Below, piece after piece: positions 3,086-25,486 of a DNA stretch of 31,201 nt. Numbering within the stretch: position 1 is the stretch's first letter; every line of letters starts with the position of its first letter. The stretch is from an uncultured Candidatus Saccharibacteria bacterium (GTDB lineage: Bacteria; Patescibacteriota; Minisyncoccia; Phycocordibacterales; JACOZG01), in assembly GCA_964364525.1 (NCBI GenBank), contig CAYIMH010000001.1:1-31201 (forward strand), in the 5' to 3' direction. The translations under genes were made by a program, and so were the position numbers. The notes under the pieces were generated by a model. The model had not been told where the DNA came from. It worked only from the letters and a program-made list of their open reading frames with translations, and ran no database searches.

Positions 3086-4316
3086 CTACCCCATCAATCG
3101 CATTTCGGCGAACCAGATGCTTGTCATACTGGTCGGGCATTGTCCCTCCTTGCCACTGCGCCAGCAACTTGTCAAAAGTTGGCCAGTCGGTAACCACCTG
3201 CTTGATGTGGTAATGCCGCATCATTGGAATGTTTCTTTTCGGCCAAGGCGTAAAATTTTCAAAAATTGCCGGTCGGCCGCTAGCGGTAACCATATAATTG
3301 GCCGTCGTCCAAATCCCAGAAACAACCAGGTCGGACAAACAAATTAATTCGTCGGTCTGAGCCTCGTCACCGTAAACCGCAACACCCAAACTTTCAAACT
3401 GACGATAAAAAGATGGGCTGTCCGACGGATGAAGTTTCAGCAAAATCGTGGCCTCGGGCACAATCGAGCGCAGATGAGTAATCATTTGTCCGTAATAAGC
3501 CAACTGGTAATCAATGGTCTTGCCGGTCCAAGAACGAAGATGGAAGCCGTGAGCAATAATCAAAATTCTGGTCTGGCCCGAACTAAGACGGTATTTGTGT
3601 TCCAGCCGGCAGCGCTCAATCGAGTCCGCGCCCAAGCGTTGATTAAGTTCGGACACGATCTGACTGTCGGCCATACCAACTACCGAGATACGGTCGCGCG
3701 GGAAACCGTAACCGGCGGCGTACCCTTCGGCCGCTTGCTCGTCAAAAACACCGATCTTGGCCGGCAATCGGTGGGCTTTAAGATACCGCGGGCCGACGAA
3801 GATGAAATCAAGAAGCCAAAGCAAAACGGTCGTCAGTTTAAAATAGATAAAACGGTGGCCAAGAAAACCGGGGTCGGCCCCCTTGACTTCAGAGACAAAA
3901 ACCGGATCGGAGGAGTGGAACGACCACTGAAGGATGATAACATCAGTCCCTAACCGCGCCGCCTCGCGAACAATGGTATCATGAGGCGGTAGAGTTTTCA
4001 TTAAAATAACTTTGGCCGGGAGTGTTTCGCGTATGAAGCGGCGGCAAGCTCGGATATGCCGGAAATGCTTCCAAAGCGAGGTAAGGACCGGGAGACGCCA
4101 AGTGGCGCGGGCCAGACCCTGATCCAAAACTCGGAAAGGCAGGCCTTGTTGCTGGGCGTAAGCCACCATTTGCTCGCGCCGCCGATCCGGTCCACGAACG
4201 AACAAAAACTCGGCGTCATAATCCTCCCGCAGGCGGGGCCAAAAACGAGCGAAATATTTTAACGAGCCGGTATAAGCCGGGACTAGAAACAATTTTGGTT
4301 TAGACGAGACAGTCAT
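3054..4316 (-). CDS. Putative GT-B fold glycosyl/glycerophosphate transferase (capsule-biosynthesis-like)
   Basis: Start refined to the ATG at 4316 (ATGA overlap with the 4313 stop), giving 420 aa beginning MTVSSKPKLF. Contains LLKLHPSD and ELICLSDLVVSGIWTT, and sits among glycan genes. Confidence 0.55.
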   Translation of the reverse strand: MTVSSKPKLFLVPAYTGSLKYFARFWPRLREDYDAEFLFVRGPDRRREQMVAYAQQQGLPFRVLDQGLARATWRLPVLTSLWKHFRHIRACRRFIRETLPAKVILMKTLPPHDTIVREAARLGTDVIILQWSFHSSDPVFVSEVKGADPGFLGHRFIYFKLTTVLLWLLDFIFVGPRYLKAHRLPAKIGVFDEQAAEGYAAGYGFPRDRISVVGMADSQIVSELNQRLGADSIERCRLEHKYRLSSGQTRILIIAHGFHLRSWTGKTIDYQLAYYGQMITHLRSIVPEATILLKLHPSDSPSFYRQFESLGVAVYGDEAQTDELICLSDLVVSGIWTTANYMVTASGRPAIFENFTPWPKRNIPMMRHYHIKQVVTDWPTFDKLLAQWQGGTMPDQYDKHLVRRNAIDGVVRLIGKSADR

Positions 4317-4936
4317 TTTTTTAGCACATAGAAATGGTGATATTGATTTTCGTAGGGAACAAAGTCCTCCAGGATTTGAAAATGATTCACCAGCACTTGC
4401 CAAATCCGCCTCGCCGAATGGCTCCGCCAACCAATTTCCCACCAGTGAGACTCTGGGCCGGTTGGCTTGAAGCGTGGCCGGCGGGGAAAAGGCAGTTTGA
4501 CCGCTTTTTGCAACCGAGGTAAGAGTGGTAATTTGGCGGAGAATCGAAGGTGGGCTCGGCAATCGGGTAGGCTGATAACAACGTAACGTTGGGCCACCCG
4601 CTTAAGTTCGATAAGGGCCTGTTCGAGATCAGCAAAAGGCAAATGCTCCAAGACCTCAAAAGCCGCCACTAGGTCGAAAGAGTCGTCCGGCGTTGGGATT
4701 TGGCGCACATCGCCGATTATGTCCGGCCGAAGTTGGTGGTCAAAATCTAAACTACGATAATCAATGGCCGTTCTATTTTTAATATAATCTCTGACCAAAC
4801 CGCTACCTAGGCCGATCTCCAGCATCGTTTTCGGTGCCAAGCGAGAAATTATTTTCAGTTGATAATAAAAACTGGCCCAGCGGTCAAAGCTGATATAATC
4901 GTTAAGCGAGTATTTAGTTCCGGATATTGGAGACAC
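4313..4936 (-). CDS. Class I SAM-dependent methyltransferase
   Basis: MLEIGLGSG (motif I), LDFD, IIGDV, SFDLVAAFEVLEHL. Confidence 0.88.
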   Translation of the reverse strand: MSPISGTKYSLNDYISFDRWASFYYQLKIISRLAPKTMLEIGLGSGLVRDYIKNRTAIDYRSLDFDHQLRPDIIGDVRQIPTPDDSFDLVAAFEVLEHLPFADLEQALIELKRVAQRYVVISLPDCRAHLRFSAKLPLLPRLQKAVKLPFPRRPRFKPTGPESHWWEIGWRSHSARRIWQVLVNHFQILEDFVPYENQYHHFYVLKK

Positions 4937-10681: not shown

Positions 10682-11842
10682 ATGCTGGCGATCAATCTTC
10701 TCTGGGTATCCGCGCAGGACAAAACTGGTGCTTTTATTTATGTCAAGAATTTGCTCGACAATCTATTTTCGCTCGACAATACGACCACCTACCTGATTAT
10801 CGTCCGCGCCAGAGATTACCATTACTTCAACGCCACCTATAGTCAACCGCCACGAATCCAAGTGGCAATCAATGATATTCGTGTCAATATTACTCGCCAC
10901 CCGCTTCGCGCCCTGGTCAAATTCTGGTACAAGTTACGACACAATGAACGCAAGATTGAGCAGATTATTGCCGCCGAGCTAACAGAGTTGGCTCAACGGA
11001 AAAACGTAAAGAAAATGTTCTTCCCGACTCAAGTGATATATCCCCGTGGTCTGGTCGGTATCGAACATTATGTTACAGTGCTTGATTTGCAACATGAATA
11101 TCTACCAGAAAATTTCTCGGCCAAGGAGTTAGCCCATCGTCGCGATAATTTAGATTATATCTGCCAAACCGCCCATCACCTGTTCGCTATTTCTGAATAC
11201 ACCAAAAAAACGCTATTGGAAAAATACCAATTACCAGAAAATAAAATCACCGTGACGCCACTGGCCCCCCACGAAACCAACGCCAAAGCAGAATCAATTG
11301 ATTTGCCCTCGAAATACCTTTTTTACCCAGCCGCCCTTTGGTCACACAAAAATCACCGGCTGATAATAGAGGTCTTGAACAAACTCCGCCTGGCCCATCC
11401 AGATCTACATGTGGTCTTCTCCGGATTAATAAAAAAAGTGTCCATAAAAAAAGAGCTGGACGAACTAGTAAAAAAATATGACCTAGTTAATCAGGTACAC
11501 TTCTTGGGCCTAGTTTCCGACGAGGTCCTAGAATATCTCTATCGGCAAGCGACCCTAATGATATTCCCCTCTTTATTCGAGGGTTTCGGTATGCCCATCT
11601 TGGAGGCCTATCGACATAATCTACCAGTCGTTGCTGCCCGCAATTCCAGCATCACCGAAGTCGCTGGCGATGCCACCCTACTCTGCGAAACAAATAATGT
11701 GCAGGAATTCACCGAAGCAATTAAGACCCTTTTGGAAAATAACGAGTTAAGAAAATCCTTGATTCCTAAGATGCAATCTCGATTAGCTTTTTTTTCCTGG
11801 CAGAAAACAGCAAAACTAACATTGCAACAACTCACACAATAG
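10682..11842 (+). CDS. Glycosyltransferase family 4 (mannosyltransferase-like)
   Basis: TVLDLQHEYLPENF, FYPAALWSHKNH, FPSLFEGFGMPILEAY, EVAGDA. Confidence 0.92.
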   Translation: MLAINLLWVSAQDKTGAFIYVKNLLDNLFSLDNTTTYLIIVRARDYHYFNATYSQPPRIQVAINDIRVNITRHPLRALVKFWYKLRHNERKIEQIIAAELTELAQRKNVKKMFFPTQVIYPRGLVGIEHYVTVLDLQHEYLPENFSAKELAHRRDNLDYICQTAHHLFAISEYTKKTLLEKYQLPENKITVTPLAPHETNAKAESIDLPSKYLFYPAALWSHKNHRLIIEVLNKLRLAHPDLHVVFSGLIKKVSIKKELDELVKKYDLVNQVHFLGLVSDEVLEYLYRQATLMIFPSLFEGFGMPILEAYRHNLPVVAARNSSITEVAGDATLLCETNNVQEFTEAIKTLLENNELRKSLIPKMQSRLAFFSWQKTAKLTLQQLTQ

Positions 11843-11882
11843 ACGCACCGACGCCATTAAGCTAATGATACATTACGTGGGC

Positions 11883-11911
11883 TTGACTTTTACGGCCGAT
11901 CGTGCTAGGCT
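11883..11911 (+). promoter_or_regulatory. Sigma70-type promoter with extended -10 upstream of the Nudix gene
   Basis: TTGACT, 17-nt spacer ending in GTGC, then TAGGCT. AGGAG Shine-Dalgarno lies 8 nt before the ATG at 11976. Confidence 0.55.
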
Positions 11912-11975
11912 AAACTAGGAGTGAAAAGTGCCCGATGAAAATGTTCTTTAACTAATAGAAATAGGAGTAAACGCA

Positions 11976-12587
11976 ATGTCAAAACCTCGTTTTCTGGCTC
12001 AACCGCTGGGCAAATCACCGCTCGGTGCTTTCGGTCTCGACCTGTGGGTAGAAGATCTGGATTTTGAGGCCAAGCCAACACCCATGGATGATGCGGCCTA
12101 TTCCCAGGCGCTTTCCTCGATGGTCTTAGTCTGCAACGATACCCTGATCATCGACGCCAAAAGCAAAGAGCCCTTTGTTGCTCGCCGGCGGGCCAAACCC
12201 ATGCAAGATCAGTGGTGGTATATTGGCGGACGACGACGGTTCGGCGAGGTGCCTCTCCGATCTATGGCCCGGTCTTTTAAACGAGAGACCTCCTTAGATC
12301 TTCCAGAAAGACGCTTTCTGTTCTTGGCTACCTACGAATATATATTCAAGGATAGACAACAGAAGCCACAATCCGGGGGCACACACACCCTCTCCCACAC
12401 CTTCGCCGTTGAGCTCGATCCCAATGAGATCGAGGTGGCCTCCGGCGCCCTTGATCCCAAGGAGTATTATGCCGAACAGGGATTGAGACCATTGGATAGC
12501 ATCGACCCCAGACACCACGAAGTGCACCCGTTCATCTTCGATGCTTGGGAACGATACATGAGTGCTCGCAAGCGGGGATTGCTGTAA
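11976..12587 (+). CDS. Nudix hydrolase, GDP-mannose mannosyl hydrolase (Gmm/WcaH)-like
   Basis: Degenerate Nudix box GGRRRFGEVPLRSMARSFKRETSL lacks the first RE/EE glutamates, as in Gmm. Also has PFVARR..KP..QWWYIGG and a TH motif, and is adjacent to gmd-fcl. Confidence 0.7.
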   Translation: MSKPRFLAQPLGKSPLGAFGLDLWVEDLDFEAKPTPMDDAAYSQALSSMVLVCNDTLIIDAKSKEPFVARRRAKPMQDQWWYIGGRRRFGEVPLRSMARSFKRETSLDLPERRFLFLATYEYIFKDRQQKPQSGGTHTLSHTFAVELDPNEIEVASGALDPKEYYAEQGLRPLDSIDPRHHEVHPFIFDAWERYMSARKRGLL

Positions 12588-12617: not shown

Positions 12618-12643
12618 AGGCCGCTCTTCGGAGCGGCCTTTTT
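12618..12643 (+). terminator. Intrinsic terminator
   Basis: Perfect 9-bp stem AGGCCGCTC-TTCG-GAGCGGCCT followed by a T-run, 30 nt after the Nudix stop. Confidence 0.85.
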
Positions 12644-14662: not shown

Positions 14663-15735
14663 GACTCGGTAATGATTTGCAGAAAACGAGCCGCGATTAC
14701 TTGTGGAGTAAGTTGTTGATTGTAGAGGGCCAAACTATTTTTAGCAAGTCGTCCTCTGAGATCTGGGCTGTTTTTCAAATTTAGAATTTTTTCTGCCAGA
14801 TCTTTGGCGTCTGCCGCTTTGACAAATAAACAATCCTCGTTGTCTGTTAGTAATTCTCGATTACTAACAGAATCACGAGTGATGTAAGGCAAACCTAACG
14901 CTAAAGTCTCAAAAGTTTTATTTTGAATAGTTCGATCTAGACGAGGATGATCAGAAAATTGCCCCAGTGATATGTAACAAGACAACATCTGCCGTCGCAA
15001 TTCCTCTTCCGACAAAAAAGCGGTGATCAACTCGACGTTAGTGAGTCGGTCGGCTTCAATTTTTTCTTCCACCGCGTGAAGCATGGGCCCCCGGCCAATG
15101 AGCAAAAACTTGATTGGCCCGTCCTTTAATAGACGAGCCGCTTCCAAGACATATTCTACGCCAGTGGCTGGAACAAACCAGCCGCGAAAGACCGCCGTAA
15201 ATTCATTCCGTTTTTTGACTAAATGATCCGGATGAAAAATAGTGTTATCAGCACCGGTAAATAATCTAGCGAGTTTCCGTTTGGAAATCCAAAAGTGTCT
15301 CTGGAGAAATCGGCTTTGGGCTTCGCTCTCTACCAACACCAGATGAGCCAAGTGAAAAGCCATAAAGTCGATAAACCAGATTAGGTAGCGACGGAAAGAA
15401 AATATGGAGTGGCCGCGACGATCTAAAACTGCGCCTTCGTACATAGAATTAAGGGCATTGTAAACAACCCGATGTCTGGATATAAGGCGAGCCAACGGAA
15501 CCAACATATTACTGAGATAGCCAACCAGCATTACATCGTAAGAATTCTTAATTTGATGATGCTTTCTGATAAGATTGACGAATTTGGCCCAGAATCGAGG
15601 GGAAGAGTCGGTACAGTTAATAATTTTTATCCCGCGATTTTCCAACCCCTTCAATAAAACCGAGTCGCGAGCCATGACCAGCCCGGGAGTTAAGCCAAAA
15701 TAACAAAAGGTCTTGATGGGAGAGCGGAGGGCCAT
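14644..15735 (-). CDS. Glycosyltransferase family 4
   Basis: [39 protein letters not shown]. Confidence 0.88.
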
Positions 15736-21466: not shown

Positions 21467-22444
21467 TTCTGACGCGATACTGGGCCAATTATGTAGATGA
21501 CTAAATTCCTTTACTTTCTGCTGAAGCTTTAAATAATCTTGACCATCAATCATTTGCCAGATTGCCGCCTTAAGATCATCTACTGAGAGTGGGTCCACTA
21601 ATAAGGTACGGCTACGCAAGAGGCTGGCCAAACCACATTCCCTCGTCATAATCACTGGCTTATCATAGACAAGGGCCTCAAGGACAAGATTAGGACTAAC
21701 TTCGCTGATAGAAGGTAAGATGACGGCGTAAGCACTGGCTATTTTGTTCATTAATTCGGCATGAGACAGGCTGACTGATTCTAAAATTATATCCGGCTGA
21801 AGTTTTTTCACCTCGGTAAAAGCGCGATTTAAAGTTTCCAGATTTTTAAGTTTTAGCGGGCGGCTAGCAAAAATAAAATTTTTCCGCGTCGGTTCTTGAC
21901 TGGCTTCCTTCGGTCCATAATAATTTTCGACGATCGCTGTTCGAGATAAATCCAGGCCATAGGGATTACGCCAAATTTGCCTCTGCCAGTCAGTACTGAA
22001 AACCAATTTGGTGGCGTGGTGAAGAGTCCAGCGAGTGAGTCGAAAAATAATTTTTTCCTTCAGCGACAATTTGCTCAAGTTGGTTTGGTAAAATTTCCTA
22101 AGTAAAACTAAGTCCCCAGTCCGCTCGACATAACCCTCCCACAAGAAGTCACCGCCAGTTCGAATAATTACTTTTTTGCGCCAAAGCCGCCCGGCAGCGA
22201 CCGTTGGCAAACCGACACTGAAAGTGTCCAAGGCTAAAATAAAATCGGCCCGCCAGATTGCCGGTAAAATTTTCAGAAAAAAATAAAGGTGACGAATGCC
22301 GGTCGGTAGCTTTTTTTCTGACTTATAAGTTTTTACTGCCACCTCGTGGCCTAATTGTTGGAAGGCCTCGGCCAGATTCTTAGCATATTGTGCCGGACCG
22401 CCAATGTCTGGTGGATAGATGCCAGTCGTAATCAGAATTTTCAT
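21443..22444 (-). CDS. Glycosyltransferase family 4
   Basis: MKILITTGIYPPDIGGPAQY, ILPSISEVSPNLVLEAL. Confidence 0.9.
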   Translation of the reverse strand: MKILITTGIYPPDIGGPAQYAKNLAEAFQQLGHEVAVKTYKSEKKLPTGIRHLYFFLKILPAIWRADFILALDTFSVGLPTVAAGRLWRKKVIIRTGGDFLWEGYVERTGDLVLLRKFYQTNLSKLSLKEKIIFRLTRWTLHHATKLVFSTDWQRQIWRNPYGLDLSRTAIVENYYGPKEASQEPTRKNFIFASRPLKLKNLETLNRAFTEVKKLQPDIILESVSLSHAELMNKIASAYAVILPSISEVSPNLVLEALVYDKPVIMTRECGLASLLRSRTLLVDPLSVDDLKAAIWQMIDGQDYLKLQQKVKEFSHLHNWPSIASELLQGFSG

Positions 22445-23634
22445 GGTTTACTTAGAATCTCGGCAAACCTCAACGCCAATTTATCCCAATTATAATTTTC
22501 GCTAACTAATTGCTGGGCCTGTTGAATTACCGTCCGCACCGCCACCTCGTTCGCCGGTGCCAAAATAAATCTGACTTGTTCGGCGACGCTCTTGGGATCA
22601 TTAACCCGACAGAGCCAGCCAGTCTGGCACTTGGACACCAGGTGTCCAAGTGCTTCGGGACTACTTGGACACCTGGTGTCCAAGTGCTTGCCGCCATGTA
22701 AAAAATCCGGGATACCGCCGACCGGCGTACCAATCACTGGCAAACCGACGGCCATGGCTTCCAAGAAGGAATTGCCAAGACCCTCACTGCGCGAGGGACG
22801 GCAGAAAACATCGGCCCTCTCCAAGTACTGGGGTAACTCCAAACTCGGTTTATAGCCCAAAAATGACACCCTAGAGGCCAATCCCAAGCTCTCGACTAGA
22901 CGCTTCAGCGCCTCCTCTTCCTCTCCCGCCCCCACAATCTCCAATTTGACGTTATCGGACAAAAAAGTCAAGGATTTGATCAGATCATCAATGCCATTCT
23001 TTTTCACTAAACGCGAAGTAGTAATAATGATTGGATCAGCCTTTAGCTTACCCGCCTTGTCGTCGGGCAGGTAGCTTTTAGCTTTTAGCTTAAATCTCTC
23101 AAGATCAACTCCATTCGGCATAACCGTAATTGGACAAGTCGCGCCCATTAGTCTCGCCCATTTTCCCAAATACCGCGAGATCACCTGGATCTGATCGGGC
23201 AACCTAAAAACACCGAGCGCTTTCGGCAAAAATAATTTTAAGCGGTAGCTTAGAGAATCCAGATCGTCGCCTTCTTGCAAAGTCAGCAAAAAAGACACGG
23301 TGGGAAATATTTTTTTAAATTTGGCTGCGGCCATTCCCGCCTGATTGGCCATCATCCCCCAGATCAGATCATAAGGTCGAAGTTGGTGACGGCGAGTCGC
23401 CCACCGCGCCGCCCGCCACGGGAAAAGATATTTCCCCCAGAAACCGCCCGGCAGACGGAAAACTCGGACATTGCCGACCATTTCTTCAATAGCCTGACTA
23501 TCACCCAAATTGACCGTCACTAATTCCCAATCATATTGCGGCAAGCGATCGGTCAGCTCGCGAATGGCCACTTCAGCACCACCCACCCATGGGTAGTAGG
23601 CGAGAGAAAAAATTAATACTTTTTTCTTATTCAT
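22441..23634 (-). CDS. Glycosyltransferase family 4 carrying two in-frame repeat-derived segments
   Basis: GGAEVA, PNGVD, TTSRLVKKNG, RPSRSEGLGNSFLEAMAVGLPVIGTPVGGIPDFL. Confidence 0.92.
   Translation of the reverse strand: MNKKKVLIFSLAYYPWVGGAEVAIRELTDRLPQYDWELVTVNLGDSQAIEEMVGNVRVFRLPGGFWGKYLFPWRAARWATRRHQLRPYDLIWGMMANQAGMAAAKFKKIFPTVSFLLTLQEGDDLDSLSYRLKLFLPKALGVFRLPDQIQVISRYLGKWARLMGATCPITVMPNGVDLERFKLKAKSYLPDDKAGKLKADPIIITTSRLVKKNGIDDLIKSLTFLSDNVKLEIVGAGEEEEALKRLVESLGLASRVSFLGYKPSLELPQYLERADVFCRPSRSEGLGNSFLEAMAVGLPVIGTPVGGIPDFLHGGKHLDTRCPSSPEALGHLVSKCQTGWLCRVNDPKSVAEQVRFILAPANEVAVRTVIQQAQQLVSENYNWDKLALRFAEILSKP
22627..22689. repeat. Double palindrome / 27-nt direct repeat (63 nt, in frame within a GT4 gene)
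   Basis: GCACTTGGACACC-A-GGTGTCCAAGTGC (22627-22653) and ACTTGGACACC-T-GGTGTCCAAGT (22663-22685). The two 23-mers (22629-22651 and 22663-22685) are exact reverse complements. Confidence 0.95.
23036..23091 (-). repeat. AAGCTAA heptamer array interrupted by a 21-nt hairpin-forming segment
   Basis: Coding strand reads AAGCTAA AAGCTAA AAGCTAC [CTGCCCGACGACAAGGCGGGT] AAGCTAA AGGCTGA. The stem is TACCTGCC/GGCGGGTA (8 bp, one G-U). Confidence 0.8.
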
Positions 23635-23657: not shown

Positions 23658-25394
23658 TTACACTTTCAGCAAGCGTCGAAGATCATCCTCGGTCACTTCA
23701 CCCTTATTACTCGGAGTGGGCGGAGTAGAGGGAATAGGTGGCGGCGGAGAGGACGGTGGCGGCGGAACCGATTTGGGCACATTGAAAGTCTCCCGCGGTG
23801 GCAAGGCGGCCTTAAGCTCCGCCTGCACCGACTTCAAAACATCGCGTAAATCGGCAGAGTGTTTACCGGTACTTTTTTCTTTTTCCTGTTCAGCCTTGTT
23901 CTGTAAAGTTTTCAGCGAGAGTGATTGGGCCTCACGTGGCGGGCTTACCACTTTAGCCAGAGGCGATTCTGGTGGAGGGAGTGGTGGCCGATTAAGCACT
24001 GGCGTCGTTTTGGTATTAATTACCGCCTTGGCCATTGCCTCGCGCATCCCGCCACTACGAGGCGGAGCCGGTCGCGGCGACGATGTTGACGCGCGCGGTC
24101 GAATCTTATTCTCCTCGTGCCAGCGGTTGATTTCAGCTTCCACCACCTCCCGCCCGTGAGCATAATTTTTCCGTGAAGCGGTGATAATTTCCTCCCGATG
24201 CGAAGGCCCCCCTTGAGCAATCGGCCCCATCCCCCGCGCCGAGAAGGGTTGCGAACCGACACCGTTGATCATCAGCGTCAAATACATTTGGTAGAGACCC
24301 AGGTTGACCATGTCCTCCTTCATAAAAGTCGGACCAAAAATCTTTTCGAACACCTCGGCGTCGAAGGGACCGACACGATAGGAAATAATCGAGCCGACGT
24401 TACCGAAGACAGCCGCCCGTACCTCCTCCGACATTTGTTCGATGTATTGATGTGCGATCGTTAACGATAATTTATATTTCCGCGCCTCGGACAGAATGTT
24501 GGCAAATGATTCATTGGCAAAAGACTGAAATTCATCCACGAAAAAGTAGAGGGGCGGTAGAGCGCGCAAGACCGCCGGCGCGACGTTGGCTCGCGACATC
24601 GCCGCCAAATAAATTTTGGTAATAATCATCGAGCCGAGCAAATTAGCATTGGACTCGCCCATCCGCCCCTTGGACAAGTTGATAATCAGAATTTTCTTAT
24701 CATCCATCACCCGACGAAAATCGAAGGAGGACTTGGGCTGGCCGATAATATTCCTAATGAGAGGGTTGGCCGTGAATTGACCGATCTTGTTCTGAATCGC
24801 CGGTACCGCCTCGAGCGCCATCCGCTCGGTATAATTGGCAAATTCGTCCACCCAGAAGGAGCGGACGGAGGGGTCAGTGATATTGGCGACCACCTTCTGG
24901 CGATAATCTTTATCAGACAAAACCCGATTGACTCCAAGCAGGGTGGAGCCGGGAAATTCAAGCAGGGCGAGGAGAGTGTTCTGTAAAATATATTCCATCC
25001 GGGCTGACCAAGCATCGACCCAAATCTTCTTGAACGCCGACATCAGACCGTTAACCACCAAGTGACGCTGATCCTTGCCGATATCTTCCATCACATTAAA
25101 AGAGATGGGGTGATCCAAATCAAAGGGGGCAAAATAGACCACATCGTTGATGCGCGAGGCCGGCACATAGTCGAGCAACTTCTCGGCCGTGCCACCGTGT
25201 GGATCAATAAAGGCCACCCCGTTGCCATTCTGGATATCCTGGATCGCCATATTCTCGAGCATGGTGGACTTACCCATGCCCGTCTTCCCGATCACATAGA
25301 CGTGCCGGCTACGATCCTCGCTCTTGATGCCAAAGCGCGTCCGCTTGCCGCGGAAATCGGTCTCGGCGAAATAGGTGATGTCCTGGGGGGTCAT
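23658..25394 (-). CDS. VirD4/TrwB/TraD-like coupling-protein ATPase with Pro-rich C-terminal tail
   Basis: Start refined to the ATG at 25394. RHVYVIGKTGMGKS (Walker A), FIDPHG, YFFVDEFQ (Walker B), SEARKYKLSLTIAHQY, FGNVGS. The C-terminal ~150 aa is low-complexity Pro/Ser. Confidence 0.85.
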   Translation of the reverse strand: MTPQDITYFAETDFRGKRTRFGIKSEDRSRHVYVIGKTGMGKSTMLENMAIQDIQNGNGVAFIDPHGGTAEKLLDYVPASRINDVVYFAPFDLDHPISFNVMEDIGKDQRHLVVNGLMSAFKKIWVDAWSARMEYILQNTLLALLEFPGSTLLGVNRVLSDKDYRQKVVANITDPSVRSFWVDEFANYTERMALEAVPAIQNKIGQFTANPLIRNIIGQPKSSFDFRRVMDDKKILIINLSKGRMGESNANLLGSMIITKIYLAAMSRANVAPAVLRALPPLYFFVDEFQSFANESFANILSEARKYKLSLTIAHQYIEQMSEEVRAAVFGNVGSIISYRVGPFDAEVFEKIFGPTFMKEDMVNLGLYQMYLTLMINGVGSQPFSARGMGPIAQGGPSHREEIITASRKNYAHGREVVEAEINRWHEENKIRPRASTSSPRPAPPRSGGMREAMAKAVINTKTTPVLNRPPLPPPESPLAKVVSPPREAQSLSLKTLQNKAEQEKEKSTGKHSADLRDVLKSVQAELKAALPPRETFNVPKSVPPPPSSPPPPIPSTPPTPSNKGEVTEDDLRRLLKV

Positions 25395-25401
25395 TGACCT
25401 A

Positions 25402-25407
25402 ATTGTA
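25402..25407 (-). promoter_or_regulatory. -10 element implying a leaderless transcript
   Basis: TACAAT lies exactly 7 nt before the ATG at 25394, with no Shine-Dalgarno sequence. Confidence 0.45.
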
Positions 25408-25486
25408 TGACTTCCGGCAACTTTGGGCAAGAAAAAAGAACCCACGCGCTGGGCGACGGGTTCTCAATGAGATCAATGATTCCAAT

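Follow-up and report, generated by a model that had tools for sequence, protein, structure and literature searches.

A 63-nt double palindrome that is translated in frame within a glycosyltransferase gene of an uncultured Candidatus Saccharibacteria bacterium is, with high probability, a REPIN-like doublet of REP hairpins that belongs to a REP/RAYT system, the transposase of which is encoded on another contig. The block lies at positions 22627–22689 of the 31,201-nt stretch of DNA that was analysed (the window), in a genome assembly of 744,870 bases on 132 contigs that is estimated to be 95.6% complete. A preliminary description, made from the letters of the window, had read it as an inserted, protein-coding palindromic element; the observation is confirmed by the analyses reported here, and that reading of it is supported.

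The two 27-nt units of the block (22629–22655 and 22663–22689) start 34 nt apart, as had been described, and are alike at 26 of 27 positions, the exception being the central W (A versus T). Each had been called a near-perfect palindrome, and each even proves to be a perfect one, with a single central base and stems of 13 and 11 bp, respectively. Copy 1 (22627–22653) is a 27-nt palindrome with a 13-bp stem and a central A on the forward strand, and its 19-nt core equals the 15 other genomic copies except for the central W. Copy 2 (22663–22689) comprises a 23-nt perfect palindrome and a GCTT tail, and its central T marks it as inverted with respect to copy 1. Taken singly as DNA, the hairpins of copies 1 and 2 have folding energies of −13.8 kcal/mol (z = −6.5) and −9.7 kcal/mol (z = −4.7). 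The copies can also pair with each other: arms of 25 nt each (22627–22651 and 22663–22687) are 100% complementary and lie 11 nt apart, and the whole block, folded as a single strand, forms one 25-bp stem (−33 kcal/mol, z = −8.0, as DNA; −56.4 kcal/mol, z = −8.4, as RNA). The 11-nt spacer (22652–22662), the first 2 nt of which overlap the palindrome of copy 1, is the loop of this long hairpin. The single long stem with an 11-nt loop that had been foreseen is therefore present, with fully complementary arms; the CTTCGG noted in that loop is there on the forward strand, but it is antisense to the gene, so that the loop of the mRNA reads AGUCCCGAAGC. The A and T centres and the complementary 25-nt arms define, within the window itself, a doublet of two inverted REPs. 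The window contains two occurrences of the 19-mer core, compared with 0.01 expected from shuffled sequences.

The host gene (22441–23634, minus strand) has an intact reading frame and encodes a GT4-family glycosyltransferase of 397 aa (Pfam Glycos_transf_1, 1e-33, and Glyco_transf_4). On this strand the doublet supplies codons 316–336 (KHLDTRCPSSPEALGHLVSKC), between GGIPDFLxxG and (E/Q)TGW, and, in agreement with the preliminary description, it amounts to exactly 21 codons in which the copies are read in different frames, copy 1 as LGHLVSKC and copy 2 as HLDTRCPS. That these residues were inserted, as had been suspected, is borne out by the homologs. Orthologs in three relatives, 47–66% identical, all align with the flanks on both sides and cleanly lack the 21 residues that separate GGIPDFLxxG from ETGW; one is from a member of the same genus (G001, 66% identical), and the other two (G010 and G002) come from two further genera of the same family. 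No insert is present in 98 of 120 homologs from the databases. At the level of codons the edges of the insert are GGC|AAG...TGC|CAG, where relatives have GGN GAG, and no target duplication is visible at the junction in this comparison. In an AlphaFold model of the protein (67 homologs; pLDDT 90.1, pTM 0.89), the mapping that had been proposed places the insert in the lone segment with pLDDT below 50 (residues 317–334), a coil between conserved elements. These comparisons show the block to be a lineage-specific, in-frame gain inside a disordered surface loop.

The same loop has a wider history of such events. On a tree of 119 GT4 homologs built with the insert loop masked, the window's protein is placed together with two proteins that have no insert (support 99), and the doublet is thus a gain within its own lineage. 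The presence of an insert requires at least 11 changes on this tree, of which at least five are forced by well-supported branches; the loop has therefore been repeatedly colonised or cleared. Three insert-bearing homologs were inspected at the DNA level, and in every one this loop carries a palindrome dimer, the palindrome differing from case to case (TTGGACAC-gga, TGGCAAGG-tgagt and TTGGACGC-cgt). Two details of the gene and its surroundings may be added. A gene for a TraG/VirD4-like coupling protein (window 23658–25445) precedes the GT4 gene, as it does in two distant relatives (loci L045 and L046), and in L046 a further copy of the palindrome proper to that genome lies at the 3′ end of the coupling-protein gene (4893–4911). 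In a further relative (G013), the GT4 ortholog (L022/L023, contig C7, 20424–21286) consists of two abutting open frames of 178 and 191 aa and may be split or frameshifted.

The preliminary description had advised a search for the motif elsewhere in the genome, and the search found it: there are 16 exact copies of the 19-mer, mostly within ORFs, and about 8 diverged ones, compared with none of a reversed control. The hairpin has the consensus ACTTGGACACC-W-GGTGTCCAAGT, frequently extended by GC on either side or by GCTT. It belongs to a superfamily of the form TTGGA-N9-TCCAA, with 36 sites in the genome against 2 for a control, in which we distinguish the hairpin of the window (family A) from a second one, TTGGAGGC-NNN-GCCTCCAA (family B), with about 11 copies. 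Perfect hairpins in general, with stems of at least 9 bp, number 101 in this genome and 14–23 in shuffled versions of it, and 59 of the 101 lie inside ORFs. Beside the copies, a conserved target motif or target-site duplication was sought, and only the partial GC/GCTT extension was found. The GTAG and CGTC tetranucleotide tags, which define the catalogued REP superfamilies (PMC3733652), are absent from the ends of the hairpins; the flanks are variable, GC and GCTT being the commonest.

About 21 of 31 good copies are inside ORFs. As the estimated coding fraction of the genome is 0.87, intragenic copies are fewer than random placement would give (p = 0.005), although they still form the majority. 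Many of the hosts are housekeeping genes. According to Pfam, family A is hosted by the genes for UvrA, UvrC, KsgA (two copies), TsaD, ArgRS (two abutting copies), a cysteine desulfurase, a sugar isomerase and HolA, and family B by those for DnaE, topoisomerase I, Dus, an SMC/RecN-like ATPase, a thioredoxin-reductase-like protein and a ComF-like protein. Read in any of its six frames, the hairpin is free of stop codons, and its three phases are translated as LGHQVSK, LDTRCPS and TWTPGVQ. Because copies are read in all three frames, what is conserved is the DNA and not a peptide motif; because there is no stop codon in any of the six frames and its length is a multiple of three, the doublet in the GT4 gene survives as 21 extra residues. 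In the two main families, 14 of 21 copies within ORFs are read in the L-G-x-x-x-S-K phase (p = 0.002 against an expectation of one third), a bias that suggests a filter at the protein level, with the caveat that the copies are not all independent. Copies of the 19-mer are found in intergenic DNA as well.

A candidate partner gene lies on contig C6 of the same genome (locus L005, 3310–3963) and encodes a Y1/HUH transposase of 217 aa with the hairpin on both sides. Six copies of the hairpin occur there within 1.3 kb; two immediately flank the transposase ORF (3273–3295 and 3965–3989), their central T and A indicating inverted orientation, and two are inside it. The protein passes the Pfam Y1_Tnp (IS200-like) model with 37 bits (cutoff 23), and the residues N84-H85-x-H87, the HUH motif, and Y145 are invariant among 8 paralogs and 54 homologs. 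A phmmer search of the PDB sequences with the single transposase sequence returned nothing relevant, and profile and fold searches were needed: a profile search aligns its HUH motif to that of ISDra2 TnpA, and an AlphaFold model of it (pLDDT 87) has as its top PDB match 4ER8 (E = 4.5e-5), the E. coli REP-associated tyrosine transposase with a bound REP hairpin, followed by IS608 and ISDra2 TnpA. The NCBIfam equivalog for RAYTs (REP_Tyr_transpos, NF047646) gives 24 bits against a cutoff of 80, so the protein is only distantly related to the curated RAYTs. Its homologs are numerous in Patescibacteria, and some of them have been named RayT by JGI. Over-representation throughout the genome of the 16-mers that flank the gene is diagnostic of RAYTs (PMC5581495), and the 16-mers flanking the transposase gene, with 17 occurrences, are the second most abundant in this genome. 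The gene adjoins ksgA in both members of the genus, and the best paralogs within the genome are 49–51% identical; this synteny and this divergence indicate that it is not multiplying as an insertion sequence. Beside the gene for UvrC (L006, contig C5, 11526–12251), the final 7 codons of which before the stop are a family-B hairpin, there is a possible transposase pseudogene (11577–12191), a paralog whose reading frame contains a TGA, and upstream of this paralog is a third copy of family B.

Hairpin and transposase vary together. In nine paralogs and orthologs from the window's genome and its relatives, each gene has a different palindrome at its flanks, and most also have a copy of it inside the ORF. 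A further 80 transposase loci were taken from public genomes, of which 72 could be analysed. A perfect palindrome is present within 200 nt upstream of the transposase at 49 of these 72 loci and downstream of it at 46; upstream and downstream palindromes have a common sequence at 31 loci, and at 25 an internal palindrome matches the flanking ones. Away from the transposase gene, the background is 0.07 palindromes per 220 nt. The internal copies are confined to two positions, aa 52–70 and aa 145–154, both of them lower-confidence loops in the transposase model, the second following the helix that bears Y145. This second position is not a simple insertion, since close paralogs show no difference in length there. 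Together, these data show that the hairpin family is linked, physically and evolutionarily, to the RAYT-like gene.

If it works in the manner of E. coli TnpA-REP and IS608, the transposase would recognise the hairpin on single-stranded DNA, cut it and rejoin the ends, and might in this way spread or remove single hairpins and doublets. The doublet, two inverted copies with an 11-nt spacer, would be the mobile unit, and in this lineage it would have inserted into the GT4 gene. Selection would then act as a filter, with only those copies persisting that are in frame and in permissive loops, and the GT4 protein would presumably remain functional. No transposition event was observed, and no empty site or joint skipping 22627–22689 was present among the Logan contigs (assembled contigs, not raw reads); in the lack of any contig with an empty site, no polymorphism is seen.

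The member of the same genus, G001, offers a view of how such sites change. Its TsaD, ArgRS and cysteine desulfurase (IscS) genes have hairpins at the same loops as those of the window's genome, in a different stem variant. The sites of G001 are often doublets with the 34-nt period, and those at TsaD, ArgRS and IscS have the arrangement of a 23-nt palindrome, an 11-nt spacer and a second 23-nt palindrome, whereas the sites in the window's genome are singlets or an abutting pair. The exact, CCWGG-centred form of the hairpin occurs in the window's genome only; in G001 the same stem is combined with different loop triplets, and each of the 39 remaining relatives has at most one inexact match to this form. 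Since either the variant or the copy number differs between the two genomes at these three loops, simple one-off transposition is insufficient to account for them, and one would have to invoke re-insertion, excision or gene conversion. Excision of REPINs is reported to leave long palindromic singlets (Bertels and Rainey, PMC3337134), and singlets derived by excision would, by analogy, fit the TsaD, ArgRS and IscS sites.

These sites also give some ground to another account of the repeats, namely that the REP-like hairpins owe their spread and uniformity chiefly to gene conversion or recombination, or are binding sites of a host protein, the RAYT not being the main driver. The TsaD, ArgRS and IscS loops and the two sites within the transposase gene are filled in both sister genomes with species-specific variants; the second of those transposase sites is not a length insertion among paralogs; and at several host sites the net change in length is +2 to +4 aa, not the length of the element, which resembles the replacement of a patch. 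The doublet in the GT4 gene is, however, a clean gain of 63 nt at a site where the orthologs have no hairpin-like sequence, the hairpin tracks the adjacent transposase paralog across the 80 loci, and the predicted fold of the transposase is that of a hairpin-cutting enzyme. We therefore regard this account as improbable, and a REP doublet mobilised by its RAYT-like transposase as the better explanation. A transcription-factor operator, a parS-like site or an uptake sequence is likewise not favoured, as the sequence tracks the transposase paralog and copies are identical over 19–23 nt, and a CRISPR-like array for the six copies on contig C6 was rejected, the spacings of 195–320 nt being the coding sequences of the transposase and ksgA.

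Two explanations that would dispense with a mobile element altogether are less probable still. A native feature of the GT4 loop at the protein level, with incidental palindromy, might be suggested by the extra residues that about 20 of the 120 homologs have there; the three inserts checked as DNA are lineage-specific palindrome dimers, however, the identical 19-mer recurs in unrelated genes in three frames as well as in intergenic DNA, and the loop has a pLDDT below 50, all of which makes this explanation very unlikely. The chance that a mis-join or read-through at a repeated k-mer created the double palindrome during assembly appears slighter yet. It is true that some Logan contigs end inside or near the repeat, X2 at 22692 and X3, from a groundwater run of a second study, at 22687, that the other copies of the hairpin act as branch points, and that loose contig ends at the repeat match those other genomic copies. 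Against this, record 3 of X1 (22373–22900) and record 24 of X4 (22555–22725) span the two copies with 0 differences, the same orthologous protein is continued in frame on either side of the block, and similar doublets are found in other genomes that were assembled independently. The check for mis-assembly that had been recommended thus came out in favour of the sequence as given, with independent contigs from two runs spanning the repeat without differences.

The preliminary description had likened the block to the Rickettsia palindromic elements (RPEs). The comparison is apt in concept, as both are palindromic repeats translated in frame within functional genes of a reduced genome; RPE-1 is Rickettsia-specific and measures about 100–150 bp, and we know of no partner transposase for RPEs. 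Here the unit is far shorter, 23–27 nt (57–63 nt as a doublet), a cognate Y1 transposase gene is present and the host belongs to the Patescibacteria, and the element is better named a REP/REPIN-type hairpin. With IS200/IS605 elements (IS608, ISDra2), the system would share the transposase fold, the HUH and tyrosine chemistry and the recognition of a hairpin on single-stranded DNA, as the structural model and analogy suggest. In contrast to these elements, the unit of gene plus ends is not multi-copy here (paralogs are at most 51% identical), and it is the bare hairpin that has spread.

The closest likeness is to the REP/REPIN-RAYT systems of E. coli (TnpA-REP, 4ER8) and Pseudomonas (REPINs; PMC3337134, PMC5581495). 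Shared features are a Y1/HUH gene flanked by inverted copies of its cognate hairpin, a dispersed hairpin, hairpins specific to each paralog, a gene that is not duplicated together with its flanks, and doublets in which the centre bases mark orientation, as is the practice for REPINs (PMC3337134). The differences are that the hairpins here are perfect palindromes of 23–27 nt, that there are only about 30 copies in the 0.75-Mb genome, about two thirds of them within ORFs, that the transposase ORF itself contains copies, at two fixed positions, and that the transposase, at about 217 aa, is longer than curated RAYTs and scores well below their NCBIfam cutoff. Intragenic REPs have been described in other phyla, where more than half are dimers or grouped repeats that encode 20–30 aa (Di Nocera et al., 2013, PMC3733652), and where they are enriched in replication and repair genes and in genes for tRNA synthetases (PMC3733652). 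The copies reported here resemble them as in-frame singlets and dimers inside genes and in a range of hosts that includes UvrA, UvrC, DnaE, TopA, HolA and ArgRS. They differ from the intragenic GTAG/CGTC REPs of that study (PMC3733652) in having no tag, in the phylum of the host, Patescibacteria, and in that intragenic copies are the majority and not a small minority.

Both REP/REPIN-RAYT systems and intragenic REP dimers are accordingly already known (PMC3337134, PMC5581495, PMC3733652). In our searches of the literature, we came across no account of REP/RAYT hairpins in Patescibacteria; one preprint mentions only a KEGG RAYT orthologue, in an archaeon. What differs here is an untagged REP, a distant and longer transposase, an intragenic majority, fixed cognate copies inside the transposase ORF and the recurrent use of one protein loop. 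An 'extragenic' hairpin repeat is found mostly inside essential genes of a gene-dense, ultra-small genome, where its copies, translated as short disordered loops, are a concrete and testable source of lineage-specific protein insertions in the CPR. For annotation, it follows that such hairpin inserts are not errors, that they are able to break assemblies and that they put hairpins of great stability (about −56 kcal/mol as RNA) into mRNAs.

A broader proposal, which we put forward tentatively and hold to be somewhat less than an even chance, is that REP/RAYT hairpins quite generally give rise to lineage-specific insertions in the loops of Patescibacteria proteins, that doublets are gained and lost repeatedly at the same permissive or targeted loops, and that the copies of its own hairpin at two fixed in-frame positions of each transposase are cis recognition or regulatory sites. 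Support for the generation of loops comes from the GT4 protein, in which at least five well-supported events affect the IPDFL..TGW loop among 119 homologs and four lineages have four different palindrome dimers at this place. The repeated arrival of different hairpins makes this loop a natural experiment on protein loops that tolerate insertion. The transposase genes, for their part, bear their own target within the reading frame, and if the proposal is true, part of the sequence of each enzyme is therefore set by its own mobile repeat.

Several other repeats and hairpins were seen in the window and in its genome. In the window, a GC-rich hairpin outside ORFs with a 9-bp stem and a TTCG loop (12618–12639) is terminator-like, and a perfect hairpin with a 12-bp stem lies within an ORF (14843–14871); neither is a member of the TTGGA..TCCAA superfamily. 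In the ksgA gene on contig C6 (L005, 4578–4612), a sense-strand copy of the hairpin with a 13-bp stem is followed by TTTTTT, which forms the gene's own Phe-Phe codons, and the two make up a signal in mid-gene that resembles an intrinsic terminator. Further hairpin families are present on contigs C2, C5, C17, C27, C40, C52, C57 and C76, with stems CAAGGTT..AACCTTG, ATCAAGGA..TCCTTGAT and TGTTAAACAT..ATGTTTAACA and a 32-nt AAAACC..GGTTTT palindrome; the ATCAAGGA family matches the hairpin of a transposase fragment on contig C83. The top 16-mer family of the genome, with 26 copies and the core CTGTGAATAACGAAATG, is located near the ends of 26 contigs, within about 120 nt of the end and mostly at 30–75 nt (for example, L011 on contig C2, 17852–17868; L007 on C14, 12610–12626; and L145 on C67, 3724–3740). 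These copies run on into one of two different sequences, a pattern that suggests the two ends of an insertion sequence that is present in multiple copies and breaks the assembly.
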